Positions 3,122-28,540 of a DNA stretch of 64,000 nt are shown here, one piece after another; within the stretch, counting starts at the first letter, position 1; every line of letters begins with the position of its first letter. The notes under the pieces were generated by a model, which made no database searches, had not been told where the DNA came from, and saw nothing but the letters and a program-made list of their open reading frames with translations. Where the stretch lies: the IMG/VR virus record IMGVR_UViG_3300030320_000049; one strand, written 5' to 3'. The stretch comes from a virus. The position numbers and the translations under genes were made by a program.

Positions 3122-3418
3122 TTAATCAAACATTTTGAATGTTTCCTTGCAAAATTCCTCATAGTCGGTTTTCCCGACCAGTGGCATTTTATTCCTCAGT
3201 TTTTCCATGGCTCTAAAAAACTTGCCTTGGTCTTTATTCCAGATTTTACAGGAAATTAGAAGATACTTCTCTTCTGTATGTCCAAATTCTTTTCCGAAAT
3301 TCACTCTAATTTTCTCATTCTTAAAAAGTTGGTCTGCCAGATACTCTTCTGTATCTGCGAAAATGTATTCGCTACGGAATAAATGTTTTTGAATTAAGAT
3401 GTAATTTTTATATGACAT
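3122..3418 (-). CDS. hypothetical protein (98 aa)
   Basis: ORF track; RBS-like GGGAGGAA upstream of ATG 3418. Confidence 0.4.
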   Translation of the reverse strand: MSYKNYILIQKHLFRSEYIFADTEEYLADQLFKNEKIRVNFGKEFGHTEEKYLLISCKIWNKDQGKFFRAMEKLRNKMPLVGKTDYEEFCKETFKMFD

Positions 3419-4364: not shown

Positions 4365-7300
4365 TCAATATGCCGGAGACGGTTTGAAACGGCTATCCGT
4401 ATCATTCTGAGCTTTGGTCACAGCCTTTGCAATCTCACTTCCGTCTAAAATAATGCTGTTCATGATGTACTGCGGATTGTTATTTCCGCTGTTCATACTC
4501 ATTGCCATTGCAACGCCCTGTGCTACTGCTTTTGCCATTTCTTCTTTTGTAAGCCCCATGCTTCCATCCGAACTGGAAACAATACTGTCTGCAATCTTCT
4601 TCATGGTTCGTGGATTTTCCAGTGGAAGAACTGCCTCGGTACCAGCTTCACCGATACCAATTACTTGTGCACCATTAAAAAGACCACCTTTGGCGTACCA
4701 ATTAGGCTTATAAACTGGTGTAGAACTGGTTCTTCCACCACCAAGATCATGTTTTCTCCATTCTGAAATATAATAAGTCAGAGTTGGTAAATGTACTTGT
4801 TTCATGCCATCAGCGAATGATTGAGCAGTTTCCCGACCAATTGATGTAAGATTAACATTAAATAGCCTTTTAATTTTATCCGAAATCCCAGACAAATTAG
4901 ATTCTGTGTAGGTTTTCATTTTCCCAGTTTCCGTGTCAACTTTACCAGAAGCCTTTTCCCAAATCTGGTTTGTATTGATAAGAACAGAAGACCAATAACT
5001 TTGAATGGTTGTCATAACCTTACCCATTACATCTTTTGTATCGGTGTCCATGGTTCCGAGGGCTGTCGATACAGCACTTGCGGAATTTTCCCAGTTTGTT
5101 TTGGAGTTGGTTTCAACATCATCATTCGTGTTCTTTATCTTTGACCAAATGGAAGGCATTGTGCTTTCTGTGCTTTTTTTCATTCCAGCCATTGCCGTGC
5201 TTACGGCAGTATTGGCGAGACCAAAGCCAGTTTTTGTCTTGGATGATACGGAGCTAGAAGCATTTGCAACAGCGGTAGTAATACCTCCCACTGCTGTTTT
5301 CACAGATGTATTCATTCCATCGAAAGAATTCTTTGCACTTGTTTCCATTGTAACAACTGCATCTGGAAAATCTTTTCTGAGTTTTTCATCTAATTCATCT
5401 AACGGAACGCCAGCATTTTTTAATGACGTATAAACTGCGTCTAGCGCTTCTTCTGTATTAGCATATGTTCTTCCAGATATTGCACTATCAAGAGCATCTT
5501 TAGCAGTTAAGTAGTCTCCACTAAATTGATCAGAGCTAAGACTTAAAAGATAAAGTTCGTCTTTCAAATCAGATATACTGATTTTGGTTGTGTCAAATTT
5601 TCCAGCTGATTCAGATACACCATCTCCAAGGGCTACAGCTTTATCAGTCATATCTTCCAAAAATCCAGTTGATACACCCGCCTGTGCGCCGTATTTTTCG
5701 AGAATTTTTCTTGCATCTTCGGTTGATACGCCGAATTCTCCAAGTTTCTGAATGAAACTATCGTACATTTCAGAATTTGATTTTCCGGCACTTTCATCTG
5801 CTTCAATTAACTTCCAAAGCTCTTCTGCTTGGTCTTGTGTTATTTTATGCGCGCTTTCCATTTCTCCTGTATAATCATGGAGATAACCACCTGTTTGTGA
5901 TAGAATTCCATTTCCACCTTGTGCAGCTTCTGTGATACTTGCAATTCCTCTTGCAAGTTTAACAGATAATGCCGTTGCAACAAATACAATCCCAGCGGTT
6001 CCAAATATAGTACCAAGCGTTGAAGAAAATGAAGATAATCCACCAGCAGATGCCGTTTTTGCCGCTCCACCAATATCACCAATGATAGTAGGAAGAAAAG
6101 ATGCGGTATCAAGTGGGAAATTTAAAAGTTTTGAAGCTAATGAACCGATTCCACTTGCAAAGGAAAAGATTTTAGTGGCAATATCCTTTGCTATTTTGAT
6201 TGTAAACAATGTTCCAAATGCAGCACCAACTTGTTTTATAAATTCTGGATCAACTCCACTTAATTTTTCAGCCAGCCAATTAATAGCATTTGCAATACCG
6301 TTAATTAAGTCTGCCCCTATATTTATTACTCCTTCAAGTCCGGTAATCAACGCATCTGCAAATCCCTCTGCAAATGGTTGGAATGCAGACCATAAATTTC
6401 CAAGAGCAGTTCCAACAGCATTCCAATCAACCTTATCAATAAAATTCTGTATTGAGGTTTTTACACGGTCAATGCTACTCCAAATCCACTCCCAGTCAAC
6501 ATCAATAACTCCAAAATTATCAAGCGCAAGTACAATTCCACCGATGCCAAGTGCCATTGACGCATAAGGATGTTTTGCCAATAAAGAAAGTCCTTTTCCT
6601 AATGGGCTGTCTTTTCCGATGATTCCACCAATAAAGGTTAATCCTTTGAATCCAAGGATTGCAATGGAGATTTGTCCAAGTCCTTTTCCAATTGCCTGTG
6701 CAGTTTCCGGGCTGATATTTTTTATTGCATCGGCAATTGAGTTCAAGCCTCCAGGAAGCGTTGTATTGATAAAATTTTCTCCAACATCGAGCAAATCTTT
6801 GAAGAAGTCAACAATTCCCTGTCCAACATTTTGTGCAAATGGCGCAAGTGCATCCCAGAAGTTTTTCAATGCCGAATTAAGTTCGTCCCAGTGAATGTTG
6901 TTTCCGAAATTTGTTAATGCGTCAACAAGTTCCGGGATTGCACTATTCATTGTCCATGTACCTACCGGCACTAAGAATTTCTCATAGAAATCCATGAGAC
7001 CAGTCCAAACAAATTTTGTTGGCTTTTGAAGCATTGTAAAGAAACCGGAAAGCGAGCTATTCAGTTTACCCCAATTGATTTTATTTAGTAAATCATTCGT
7101 AATATTAAAGAATCGAGGAAGCCCGGAATTGTCAGATAACATCCATAATCCAATTGGTTTCAGATAATTATTCCACAAATCTTTCAGAGCTGTAATAGAG
7201 AAGTTTCCAAGCTTGCTAAGACCTTCATCATAAAGTTTCTTGATTGATGCAGTTGTTGGTTTAGCCGCTTTACGAATTTTTTTAAATACAGCTACAATCT

Positions 7301-10300
7301 GATCAGCGGTATCATTTGCCTTATTATTCATTTCTTCAAAAGCTTTATCCCATGCAGCTTGATACTCTGACAGGGCTTTATCTAATGCAGCATCCAGTTC
7401 TGGAAGGTGTGCACTCGCACCGCCTCCACTTCCGGAAGAGCCGGAAGAATTGCTAACTTTTGCATCATTTAATTGATTTAATTCATCAAATGAAAGCACA
7501 GAAAGAGTTTTTTGTAATTTCTTCGCATTGTCATTTGTTTTGTCAAGCCCGGAAGCTGCATCTTCTGTACTATCTGCAATACTTCCCATATCAACTGCGG
7601 CACTTCCTGTGGAAGCAACATAATTGGACATTTTGATACCCAAAAGTCTTCCAACCCACGAAAAAGCTCTCTGAATTGCAATAACAAAGGCGTTTATATA
7701 TGGAAGAACCTTTGAGATAATCGGAATGAATAATGAACCTATTGTCCTTGAAAGTGCGGAAAAGTTAGATTGTAGTAATCTAAGTTGGTTTGCCGGCTGA
7801 TTTATCGTATTAGCCAGGTCACCCCATGCATACTTTGAACTATTCAAGATTGTTATAGTTCTCAGAATAGCCTTGTCCGATTGACTTAAACTTGATACAG
7901 TAGCGTCAATTCCAAGATTATAAAGTTCCTGTTGTAAATTTGCCACACGGATATTAATGCCGTACTTGTCAAGAGCCCGGCTCATTCCGGTTATTCCGGA
8001 TGCCATATCATTCCATACATCGTTGAACTCAAGGTTCTTTACAGAAGCAAGGTCTGCTCCGATTTCTGTTAAAGCTTGTGAAACCTTAGTTGATGCATCT
8101 GCTGTTGCCCCCATGGATGATGCCATCTGAGCATAAGTAGCTTGATAGTTCATCGTTTGGTTTGGATCAAGTCCGAGGCTCGCGCCTTTTGTTCTAGTCA
8201 GATCACCTGCATCTGATACTTCAAATCCAGTCATTTTTTTTGTGAGTTCTTTTGCACGTTTTTCAAAAGATCCCACATATTCCTCTGCGGATTTTACTCC
8301 TGCATTCTGCCACTTGCTGATATCTAACCCGTCAGTAACTTGATCGAACGCAGAGTTAAAATAATTCAAAGTTTCTACGTAATCAGACGCAGATTCTACA
8401 GAATTCCAAAGTGCTTTAATCCCCCTTGTTACTGTGAAGAATTTCGCATATAATCCAGCAAACTGTGAAGTTAATGAACCAACTTTTTTTGAAGTCGCAT
8501 TTGCATTATTTCCAAATCCAGTTAAAGCAGAACTTGCAGCTCCAATTATGGAGGATAACCTTCTTCCAGCATTTCCAAGTCCATTTGTGGAATTTGATAA
8601 TCTCGAAAAAGAATTCGAAAGAGAATTTGTGGCTTTATTTATTTTTCCACTTGCAGTAGCTAACTGTGCCAAAGCTTCTGTCATTCTTATTGTATTTTCA
8701 CTAATTTTTGGTGCTGATTTCATTACATTGAAGAACGACAATACTTCATTTGCTAATGTCCCAAGTTGTCCAGAAGATTGAGCAATTTTACCACCAGCAC
8801 TTGCCAATTGTGAGATGGATTGTACAAATCTATTTGCAGAATCCGAAATTCCATCAACACCAATAAAGCTTTCTGTGATAATTCTTAAACTGCTTCCCAA
8901 TGCAGGTAATTCAGCGGATACATTTGCAATATATTCACCGGAATTGGCTAATCTAGCCATTGAATTAACAAAACGATTAACACTTGCAGATACATCCGGT
9001 ATTGCCGATAATCCAGATAACTGATTGATTATCTCGCCAAGTTTCATAGAATTAAAATTACTAATATCTACCTGGCTAAATCTGCTAATGGAATTAATGA
9101 TTGCATTCAAACCGGAAGCTTTATAATTAACAGTTCCCATGGCTCTTAAAGAATCTGAAAACTGTTTCATTCCATCGGCAATGCTTGTCATTTGTCCTGC
9201 ATCAATTTCTTTTAACTTTCCGGTAACTGCGTCTTTAATTCCTGTAGTGTCTACATCCAGAGTGACTTTTACAGTGTTATATTTCAGTTCGGCAACTTTG
9301 TTGATTGCCTTCTGAATATCCATTGTTATCTTATCCGTATTGATTTTTACATCAATAGGAAGTTGTCCATCCGCACTTTTCAAAGCATCGTTAAGGCGAG
9401 ATTTTACTTGTTCTGCTAATTGTCCTGTTGAATCGACTGCCATTCCCCATACTTTATCTGATGCTTTAGAAGCACTTTCACCGTAAAGAGATTCAATGGA
9501 AACTGGCTTAATGGATTCTCTAACTTTCTTTATATTTTCCAGAACGGTAACAAGCTGATCTGCTGCATTAATAGTATCTTTTGGAATTAATGTTGGAAAT
9601 CTTTCTGAAAGCTCTCCCCATGATTTATCGAGAGTGATTCCTTTTGTTGCATCGGTAACAACTTTATTAAGGTTATTCTTTAAAAGTTCTGAAAATTCTC
9701 CCTTTCCAATATCAGCTTTCAACATATCGGAAACATAGATTTTCTTGTTTTTGAAATAATTGTAAAAATCAACCCATTCCTGTTCTGCACCATCTAAGTA
9801 GCTTCCAAGATTGGCTTTTACTACACTTCCGCTTTTGATAATCGTATTTCCAATTTCTTCAACAATGCTTCCAACATTTCCAGAGATTTCTTTCCCGTCA
9901 AAAGACTGTGCCATTTCCTTTGCAAGTTCGTTCATTTGAGAACGAACTTTTGAAGCAGCACCGCCTTTTAAGTTAAATGCTTCAATTAATTGCTTTGAAA
10001 TGGAAGAGGTATCAATTTTAATATCACGTACTGTTTTATCAATGGCGTATTGTAGTTTTTGCGCTTGATCTCCACCCTTGATATCCAAATCAAGACTAAT
10101 CTTTTGATTCTGAAGATTGCTAAGATTGATTTTACTAAGTGTGTTTAATTTTGAAATAGCACTATCAAGCCCAGAAGTACGAACATTGCCTAGAGAATTA
10201 AAGGCAGACGTAACCCTTTCAAGTTCCCTTGCATAGCTACGCAGTCCATTTGTATTTACTCCGCTTAATGCGGAATTAACTTCTGTGAGTTTATTTGAAA

Positions 10301-28290: not shown

Positions 28291-28423
28291 GCTTGTTCTC
28301 CTCCCAACATTCACAACTATCATACATGCATCTAAAGTCTGCGCAATATTTGCTATCACCATTGAAGCAAACCCATGTGAAGTCATCATGTTTTCTACAA
28401 TTCTTACAACATTTTTCTTCCAT
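28283..28423 (-). CDS. Cys-rich small protein (46 aa, below track cutoff)
   Basis: Own translation MEEKCCKNCRKHDDFTWVCFNGDSKYCADFRCMYDSCECWEENKHE. Confidence 0.35.
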   Translation of the reverse strand: MEEKCCKNCRKHDDFTWVCFNGDSKYCADFRCMYDSCECWEENKHE

Positions 28424-28437
28424 AAACACCTCTTGTT

Positions 28438-28494
28438 AAAAAAATCCAGTGCGCCGACTTGAACGGCATGAATCTCCCAACGAGAAACACTGGA
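28438..28494 (-). ncRNA. Mini tRNA-like three-way junction (M1) lacking an anticodon arm, followed by U7
   Basis: Minus strand: TCCAGTG TT TCTC-GTTGG-GAGA TTCA TGCCG-TTCAAGT-CGGCG CACTGGA TTTTTTT. It has a 7-bp acceptor-like stem, a D-like hairpin with GG and a T-arm with UUCAAGU loop. Confidence 0.5.
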
Positions 28495-28540
28495 ACTTTA
28501 AGGGGGAAAATGCAACTTCTGGCAATGGCAATTTGCCAGA

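Follow-up and report, generated by a model that had tools for sequence, protein, structure and literature searches.

The window analysed here, a 64,000-nucleotide (nt) stretch of IMG/VR virus record IMGVR_UViG_3300030320_000049, contains a phage island of transfer RNA (tRNA) and other RNA genes in which two elements, M1 and M2, fold as tRNA-like structures without an anticodon arm. Both structures are real and under selection: among more than 150 related contigs of human-gut phages, compensatory changes preserve the two folds. Our favoured reading, held at a probability of roughly 45%, is that M1 and M2 are tRNA-derived RNA genes that are co-transcribed with the array and excised by tRNA-processing enzymes, M1 acting as a removable boundary or terminator element; this reading leaves the role of M2 aside. 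A preliminary description of this DNA had placed the two folds at the coordinates below, which hold, but the letters that it wrote out are the reverse complement, so that both elements, like the neighbouring genes, lie on the minus strand.

28445–28494, minus strand: M1, a 50-nt tRNA-like fold without anticodon arm, identified by sequence, minimum free energy (MFE) fold, covariance model R1 and covariation
28438–28444, minus strand: M1 trailer, a U7 tract directly after the acceptor stem, read from the sequence, its first U at the discriminator position
31083–31134, minus strand: M2, a 52-nt tRNA-like fold without anticodon arm, identified by sequence, MFE fold, covariance model R2 and covariation

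Folds of M1 and M2

The sequence of M1 (28494–28445) is TCCAGTG-TT-TCTC-GTTGG-GAGA-TTCA-TGCCG-TTCAAGT-CGGCG-CACTGGA, followed by T7 (28444–28438). Its acceptor-like stem of 7 base pairs (bp), four of them G-C, leads through a UU linker into a 4-bp D-like stem with the loop GUUGG, and a 4-nt linker connects this hairpin to a T-arm composed of a 5-bp stem and the loop UUCAAGU. The sequence of M2 (31134–31083) is GTCTTCT-A-GCCC-AACG-GGGC-TGATTAAA-GGGGC-TTCAAAT-GTCCC-GGAAGAC. Here, the 7-bp acceptor-like stem ends in an invariant U.G wobble, the D-like stem with the loop AACG extends to 5 bp because A8 pairs with U22, and a 7-nt linker, GAUUAAA, precedes a 5-bp stem with the loop UUCAAAU. The MFE and centroid structures of both elements correspond to the proposed three-way junction. 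The predicted fold of M1 has a free energy of −20.4 kcal/mol (z = −3.9) and was equalled by 0 of 200 shuffles, and that of M2 reaches −20.8 kcal/mol (z = −2.8) and was equalled by 3 of 200.

The architecture was formulated as a descriptor, in which a 7-bp stem encloses a hairpin and a 5-bp stem with a TTCRANN loop, the latter set directly against the 3′ strand. A scan of both strands of the 64 kb returned exactly two sites, M1 and M2, whereas dinucleotide-preserving shuffles gave a mean of 0.105 matches each (n = 200), or 0.055 when the D-like stem was at least 4 bp. ARAGORN and Rfam (at the gathering thresholds and at E ≤ 10) detected five tRNAs in the island and nothing at M1 or M2. The preliminary description of the two elements as anticodon-arm-less tRNA-like folds is thus borne out by the MFE folds, the descriptor scan and the covariation. 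It had also alluded to a third element, M3, but no other site in the window fits the descriptor, even when relaxed; the only other non-canonical tRNA-like bodies, of 114 nt and 89 nt, carry an inserted hairpin module.

A hammerhead ribozyme was considered for M2, which has CUGAUUA within its three-way junction. Hammerhead cores contain a conserved CUGANGA and GAAA. In M2, a U occupies the essential G of CUGANGA, the segment after the second hairpin varies (GGAAG, GGAUG, GGACG, GGGUG) such that the core is not conserved, and no Rfam ribozyme model matches; this assignment was rejected.

Compensatory changes define two RNA families

The relatives of the window form a large clade of ~40–85-kb phages from human-gut viromes. 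Homologues were collected in three sets of IMG/VR contigs, comprising 80 obtained via the DUF2828 protein of the island, at least 118 obtained via the M1 pattern and 45 obtained via a pattern for M1 variants with an altered acceptor stem, together with two GenBank scaffolds from human faeces. Among 22 distinct M1 sequences, 98.0% of the pair cells hold standard pairs and 8 of the 16 pairs are altered on both sides (53 cells). By comparison, slid-register controls showed 27–51% pairing and at most two double-sided pairs. Likewise, 98.3% of the cells are paired among 24 distinct M2 sequences, and 7 of the 17 pairs are altered on both sides (60 cells), with pair 1:72 taking five pair types. Homologues with compensatory base changes, on which the preliminary description had made its reading depend beforehand, are thus numerous for both elements.

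The M1 homologues fall into four sequence types, in which the D-stem reads, for example, TCTC/GAGA, CCAC/GTGG, TCAC/GTGA or TCGC/GCGA. Types C and D also allow an 8+4 reading of the helices in place of 7+5, and the acceptor-plus-T stack stays at 12 bp. G.U pairs, which would be A.C on the opposite strand, are frequent in both elements. Since these pairs, including the invariant U7.G of M2, exist only on the minus-strand reading, the fold belongs to the sense transcript. For the same reason, a DNA-level element such as an att site or a cruciform is disfavoured.

Covariance models were built from the two homologue alignments. In the window, R1 detects M1 only (74.2 bits, E = 4e-20, one copy) and R2 detects M2 only (82.2 bits, E = 7e-24, one copy). 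The two models do not cross-match, and M1 and M2 therefore represent two families sharing one architecture rather than the single family initially proposed. A scan of one genome per bacterial and archaeal species with the M1 and M2 patterns gave zero matches and thus no bacterial or prophage copies within that set. The phage of the window has strong Shine-Dalgarno sites and its terminase is nearest to that of a Clostridium innocuum phage (38%), so that its host is likely a Firmicute.

Relationship to canonical tRNA

Comparison with canonical tRNA (Rfam RF00005) reveals that both elements retain a 7-bp acceptor stem stacked directly on a 5-bp T-stem, with a 7-nt loop (UUCAAGU in M1, UUCAAAU in M2) that conforms to UUCRANY. 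M1 further shares U8, a 4-bp D-stem, a GG in the D-loop and a connector of 4–5 nt, the size of a variable loop. In tRNA, the GG of the D-loop contacts the T-loop. Both elements differ from tRNA in lacking the anticodon stem-loop and hence the cloverleaf, and both are missed by ARAGORN and the Rfam tRNA model; only 19 nt (M1) and 21 nt (M2) separate the 5′ strand of the acceptor stem from the T-stem. M1 is close to a tRNA from which positions 27–43 have been removed. M2 is looser, with no spacer between the acceptor and D-like stems, a 4–5-nt D-loop that has no GG, and a 7-nt connector. The preliminary description had called the T-loops canonical. This is correct for M1 and M2 of the window, but the M2 loop is GUCAAAA or the 8-nt NGUCAAAU in some clades.

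The similarity to tRNA extends to the 3′ flanks. CCA is encoded in neither M1 nor M2 nor in any of the island tRNAs (0/5), and the trailers of the tRNAs, M1 and M2 all start with U and never with C. A C after the discriminator base is a reported anti-determinant of RNase Z (PMC7479834), and the U-initial trailers are compatible with processing by this enzyme.

Position of M1 and M2 in the RNA island

Across ~170 contigs, the island follows a constant order: tRNA-Gln(UUG), M2 where present, tRNA-Met, variable tRNAs and other RNAs, the DUF2828 module where present, a variable tRNA, a hairpin and M1, after which come the U-run, a Shine-Dalgarno sequence and an ATG. The landmarks of this order in the window are as follows.

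31188–31260, minus strand: tRNA-Gln(UUG), with which the array always begins, directly preceding M2
28673–30124, minus strand: DUF2828/DUF7788 (vWA) protein, an optional insert of the island (Pfam match; PHROG 850)
28541–28612, minus strand: tRNA bearing the anticodon UCA, the final canonical tRNA ahead of M1, CCA not encoded
28518–28540, minus strand: hairpin between the last tRNA and M1, conserved in relatives, its stem covarying

M1 is the final RNA gene whatever tRNAs precede it and whichever open reading frame (ORF) follows. In the window, the U7 tract is followed by AACAAGAGGTG, a ribosome-binding site, and by an ATG at 28422. Over the relatives, the distance from M1 to the next start codon is 21–25 nt, and therefore leaves no space for a promoter. 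The downstream ORF varies between clades while M1 is constant; M1 therefore belongs to the end of the array and not to one gene, and an assignment as the 5′ untranslated region (UTR) of one specific gene is ruled out. The trailer of M1 consists of the discriminator base followed by 4–8 U in all four sequence types. Its leading T-run has a mean length of 5.2 (31 distinct trailers), as compared with 1.1–2.0 for every tRNA class and for M2. The combination of a stable stem and a U-tract that characterizes an intrinsic terminator is accordingly found in M1 (7 bp, four G-C pairs, U7) and not in M2.

By comparison, M2 is a discrete optional cassette, and some close relatives lack precisely this element. 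Loci L003 and L013 have no copy of the ~60 nt containing M2 and retain the flanking hairpins, and model R2 confirms the absence of M2 in five loci. The island is a mosaic: its two ends, tRNA-Gln at the start and M1 at the finish, are constant, and the RNA cassettes between them are exchangeable. In loci L137, L085 and L097, which have no DUF2828, the slot of the DUF2828 module is occupied by ~230–600 nt of unrelated non-coding sequence.

A possible removable boundary at the end of the array

How might such elements function? Each keeps the top half of a tRNA, namely the 12-bp acceptor-plus-T-stem stack with a D-like hairpin, and neither can decode because the anticodon arm is lost. An acceptor stem plus T-arm suffices for RNase P, RNase Z and the CCA-adding enzyme. 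Since the 12-bp stack is what these enzymes measure, M1 and M2, presumably transcribed within the polycistronic tRNA array, should be excised from it. The host enzymes RNase P and RNase Z would generate the 5′ end and, by cleavage behind the discriminator, the 3′ end, respectively, as expected for the adjacent CCA-less tRNAs, and CCA could be added to the excised RNAs. M1 stands at a fixed position at the 3′ boundary of the array and may serve as that boundary. Its acceptor-like stem and U-run resemble an intrinsic terminator and could stop or attenuate transcription of the array, and M1, being tRNA-shaped, could then be removed by RNase P or RNase Z. Once M1 was gone, the 3′ terminus of the last tRNA would be free, and the tRNA precursor would no longer be joined to the mRNA beginning ~20 nt downstream. 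Terminator hairpins must be removed before tRNA 3′ ends mature, a known problem to which a tRNA-shaped boundary, if M1 is one, would be a tidy solution.

The preliminary description had suggested processing punctuation for both elements. M1 fits this role, being always the last RNA gene and lying 21–25 nt before the next start codon, and punctuation is plausible for it; M2 is left unexplained. The neighbours of M2 do not need it, and M2 is therefore more likely a free small RNA, an accessory-type cassette that may be gained and lost like an accessory tRNA gene.

Several observations weigh against the boundary reading. Every processing step in it is inferred, and punctuation does not explain M2, whose dispensability to its neighbours counts against a purely structural role, as do its invariant U7.G wobble, A8 and AAA-GG junction. 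M1 is not indispensable either, since the island of the L072 clade ends without it. M1 forms a three-way junction in place of the simple hairpin expected of a terminator, and a promoter and terminator consensus scan of the island, which was uninformative overall, does not call it. Moreover, efficient termination would shut off the promoter-less ORF that begins 20 nt further on; termination would therefore be only partial, or the U-run is used otherwise. Finally, acceptor pairs 1–3 and 5, the D-loop GUUGG and the T-loop are invariant in M1 while the remaining pairs covary, which suggests sequence-specific recognition beyond the needs of RNase P, RNase Z or termination.

Alternative explanations

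The invariant positions suggest specific recognition by a partner and would suit a function in trans. The excised ~50-nt RNAs, perhaps CCA-tipped, would accumulate as tRNA mimics and act as decoys or sponges for proteins or RNAs that read the acceptor end or the elbow and ignore the anticodon. Their possible targets are host toxins or defence enzymes that work on the 3′ ends of tRNAs, tRNA-modifying enzymes and sensors of uncharged tRNA. The accessory-gene-like behaviour of M2, present or absent with its flanks unchanged, would suit such mimics, and the same island holds other tRNA-like RNAs without a normal anticodon loop. Neither element, however, co-occurs with the protein genes tested (DUF2828 and RtcB), a purely trans-acting role leaves the terminal position and U-run of M1 unexplained, and the absence of M1 and M2 from the genomes scanned outside this phage clade offers no comparative handle. 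We regard trans-acting mimicry as unlikely, though the leading alternative. A bolder form would make M1 and M2 the first phage ‘half-tRNAs’, stable CCA-tipped mimics, reduced to the acceptor end and elbow, that titrate or mislead host factors blind to the anticodon, with M1 doubling as a self-removing terminator; among such factors would be defence toxins that alter or cleave the 3′ ends of tRNAs, sensors of uncharged tRNA, and the processing or modification enzymes themselves. This form we likewise hold to be unlikely.

At the opposite extreme, M1 could be merely a branched intrinsic terminator and M2 merely a decaying tRNA remnant, neither of them processed or functional by itself. The U-run 3′ of M1, the dispensability of M2 in nature and the drift of M2 loops from the tRNA consensus in some clades would all be expected on these grounds. 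Yet a terminator needs no conserved T-loop, GG-containing D-loop or exact 12-bp stack, and all three helices of both elements are kept by compensation (98% of cells, 22–24 sequences), unlike those of a pseudogene. This makes the explanation improbable.

DUF2828 and its candidate partner RNAs

M1 and M2 flank the DUF2828 gene in the window, and the preliminary description had proposed them as ligands of this ‘Ro-like’ protein; they would then correspond to the tRNA-like YrlA beside bacterial Ro60. Ro60 binds a helix plus a single-stranded U tail, a shape with which M1 ends. Y RNAs beside bacterial Ro60 hold tRNA-like modules that are substrates for RNase P and the CCA-adding enzyme (PMC4201824). 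The distribution of the genes argues against this pairing. We examined 123 complete islands, defined by the presence of M1 and at least 3.5 kb of upstream sequence. DUF2828 is present in 78 of the 123 and absent from 45, as scored on parts of each contig, so that a copy elsewhere in the genome is possible. The 45 islands keep M1 and mostly M2: M2 occurs in 64 of the 78 islands with DUF2828 versus 35 of the 45 without, and there is thus no association between the two. Where at least 5 kb of downstream sequence was also available (29 islands), 21 have neither DUF2828 nor RtcB nearby. Conversely, M1 and M2 are both missing from the sister clade L072–L082, whose DUF2828 is 86–87% identical. Cultured phages frequently encode DUF2828 (701 records), in many cases next to tRNA arrays. 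No M1- or M2-like fold was detected by descriptor or model in four such DUF2828 phages, of Bacillus, Listeria, Mycobacterium and Salmonella, which have tRNA arrays or a Ro-like gene.

The label ‘Ro-like’ itself is an annotation on some phage records only, and DUF2828 showed no match to Ro60 in the PDB, either as a single sequence (phmmer) or as a six-sequence profile. M1 and M2 also have no long Ro-binding stem. By comparison, two other tRNA-like RNAs of 114 nt (30481–30368) and 89 nt (30366–30278), together with the DUF2828 5′ UTR, track DUF2828 strictly, occurring in 75 of the 78 islands with the gene and in 0 of the 45 without. This strict co-occurrence makes the two RNAs better candidates for DUF2828 partners than M1 and M2, for which such a role is very improbable, and redirects the search for partner RNAs of this widespread phage ‘RNA-binding protein’ to other tRNA-like RNAs.

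Both RNAs (30368–30481 and 30278–30366, minus strand) have normal acceptor, D and T arms, and their anticodon loop is replaced by a ~50-nt module composed of a 7-bp hairpin carrying CAUG...UG and a single-stranded stretch with A[CU][AU]GCAA. For the RNA at 30368–30481, a tRNA match that allows for a 51-nt insertion reaches 48.7 bits; such an insertion is far too short for a group I intron, and the phage encodes RtcB. Four or five such replaced-loop genes stand in tandem in the L072 clade (L072 2800–3460). The replaced-loop RNAs may represent either tRNAs that carry a novel type of intron or tRNA-like RNAs that do not decode. The 230 nt upstream of DUF2828 (30130–30481 region) contain four copies of the motif A[CU][AU]GCAA, as compared with ~0.2 expected. 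Orphan T-arms in the DUF2828 phages MrDarsey (Bacillus) and BPS15Q2 (Salmonella) are likewise preceded by ACAGCAA at a distance of ~40 nt, as is an orphan T-arm in a mycobacteriophage by AGCAGCAAT; the sites of these motifs and T-arms are L201 ~3240–3300, L204 ~7430–7500 and L203 ~6520–6590.

Comparison with known tRNA-like RNAs

Among known systems, t-elements come closest in function, and rnaC/rnaD of T4 are the closest phage analogue. The t-elements of plant mitochondria are tRNA-like folds cut by RNase P and RNase Z, and the resulting ends define those of the adjacent mRNAs (PMC1920247). The excised t-element can be stable and can gain non-templated C or CCA (PMC1920247; Forner et al. 2007). 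As in t-elements, non-canonical T-arm folds are embedded in longer transcripts, and an acceptor and T-arm fold stands at an RNA boundary: M1, at the junction of array and mRNA, lies between the last tRNA and the next ORF, and M2 between tRNA-Gln and tRNA-Met. t-elements differ in being organellar, scattered remnants that are not fixed members of an array and have no adjoining U-run.

In T4 (L205, record positions 70908–72530), the tRNA cluster starts with tRNA-Gln and ends with the stable RNAs rnaD and rnaC, which the record labels ‘small, stable RNA’ (rnaC as species 1, rnaD as species 2) with no function given. The terminal part of rnaC is a canonical T-arm, CCGGG-UUCGAAU-CCCGG, immediately adjoined by an acceptor-like 3′ strand. 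The resemblance to the island thus lies in the 3′ position within a phage tRNA cluster headed by tRNA-Gln and in a T-arm with acceptor-like closure. By contrast, rnaC and rnaD are 139 and 119 nt long with large extra domains, compared with the minimal 50-nt fold, and R1 and R2 found no match on the T4 locus, with no sequence similarity to rnaC or rnaD.

Other tRNA mimics share the mimicry and not the anatomy. In YrlA and bacterial Y RNAs, a T-arm and a D-arm mimic tRNA and the gene lies near that of a Ro-type protein in bacteria and phages; the YrlA of M. smegmatis is cut by RNase P and gains CCA (PMC4201824; Chen et al. 2014). YrlA differs in that its RNA ends form a long Ro-binding stem and its acceptor stem is closed, whereas the ends of M1 and M2 form the acceptor stem itself. 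Dependence on a Ro gene and a long terminal Ro stem with a distal tRNA module, the hallmarks of Y RNA and YrlA, are found in neither element, and the Rfam Y RNA families have no match in the island. The tRNA-like domain of transfer-messenger RNA (tmRNA) likewise consists of an acceptor stem and T-arm with a reduced D region and no anticodon arm. The alanine identity of tmRNA resides in G3.U70. tmRNA thus differs by this pair and by a large mRNA-like and pseudoknot domain from M1 and M2, which have C3-G70, nothing inserted and a length of 50–52 nt; ARAGORN detected no tmRNA in the window, and neither element belongs to this class. The same distinction of shared mimicry and different anatomy applies to mascRNA. 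As compared with an intrinsic terminator, M1 has the stable (acceptor) helix followed by 4–8 U in all variants, but its ‘loop’ is a 36-nt two-hairpin junction with conserved loops of tRNA type, and M2 has no U-run.

The preliminary description knew of no phage element of this form. Consistent with this, no description was found in Rfam, in the ARAGORN output or in the literature that we searched on phage tRNA-like RNAs, mini-tRNAs, DUF2828 and RNase P/Z, which contained no phage array with tRNA-like genes that lack the anticodon arm. Phage tRNA clusters are commonly regarded simply as sources of decoding tRNAs; here, two members that do not decode are under selection, and one of them, M1, is a fixed part of the cluster's architecture. 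Should M1 be a tRNA-shaped boundary, it would be the first counterpart in a bacterial virus of t-elements and of the tRNA punctuation of organelles; should either RNA act in trans, a new class of tRNA mimic would join phage–host conflict. The models R1 and R2 could improve the annotation of gut phage genomes, in which these loci are currently blank.

Other tRNAs and structured elements of the island

The tRNA slot before M1 carries the anticodon tca, tga, gct, tgt or aca among near-identical phages. The tca tRNA of the window (28541–28612) is opal-reading and has a C instead of U at position 33. The large ORFs of the window are intact under the standard code, and TGA recoding is not evident in the window. 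In the clade with M1 types C and D, the tRNAs called by ARAGORN include some whose anticodon loops are abnormal (‘ac’, ‘aa’, ‘tt’).

The stem of the hairpin between this tRNA and M1 (28518–28540) takes the forms CTGGCAA/TTGCCAG, CCAATGA/TCATTGG and CCTACGA/TCGTAGG, and its 7-nt loop, AUUGCCA (ACUGCAA in relatives), resembles an anticodon loop reading UGC. A long bulged hairpin with the conserved loop AUGGCGG lies just upstream of tRNA-Met (30985–31022, minus strand). Between the window, GCCGGATTGTTTG...CAAATAATTCGGT, and L003, GCCAGAAATAAAT...CTTATTTCTGGT, the two strands of its stem differ by compensatory changes. Further hairpins stand directly 5′ of tRNA-Gln and of the second tRNA-Met. Two non-coding regions on the minus strand, one between the two tRNA-Met genes (30620–30900) and one upstream of tRNA-Gln (31261–31416), are conserved and have no Rfam match; both persist in nearly all related islands and may contain additional structured RNAs.

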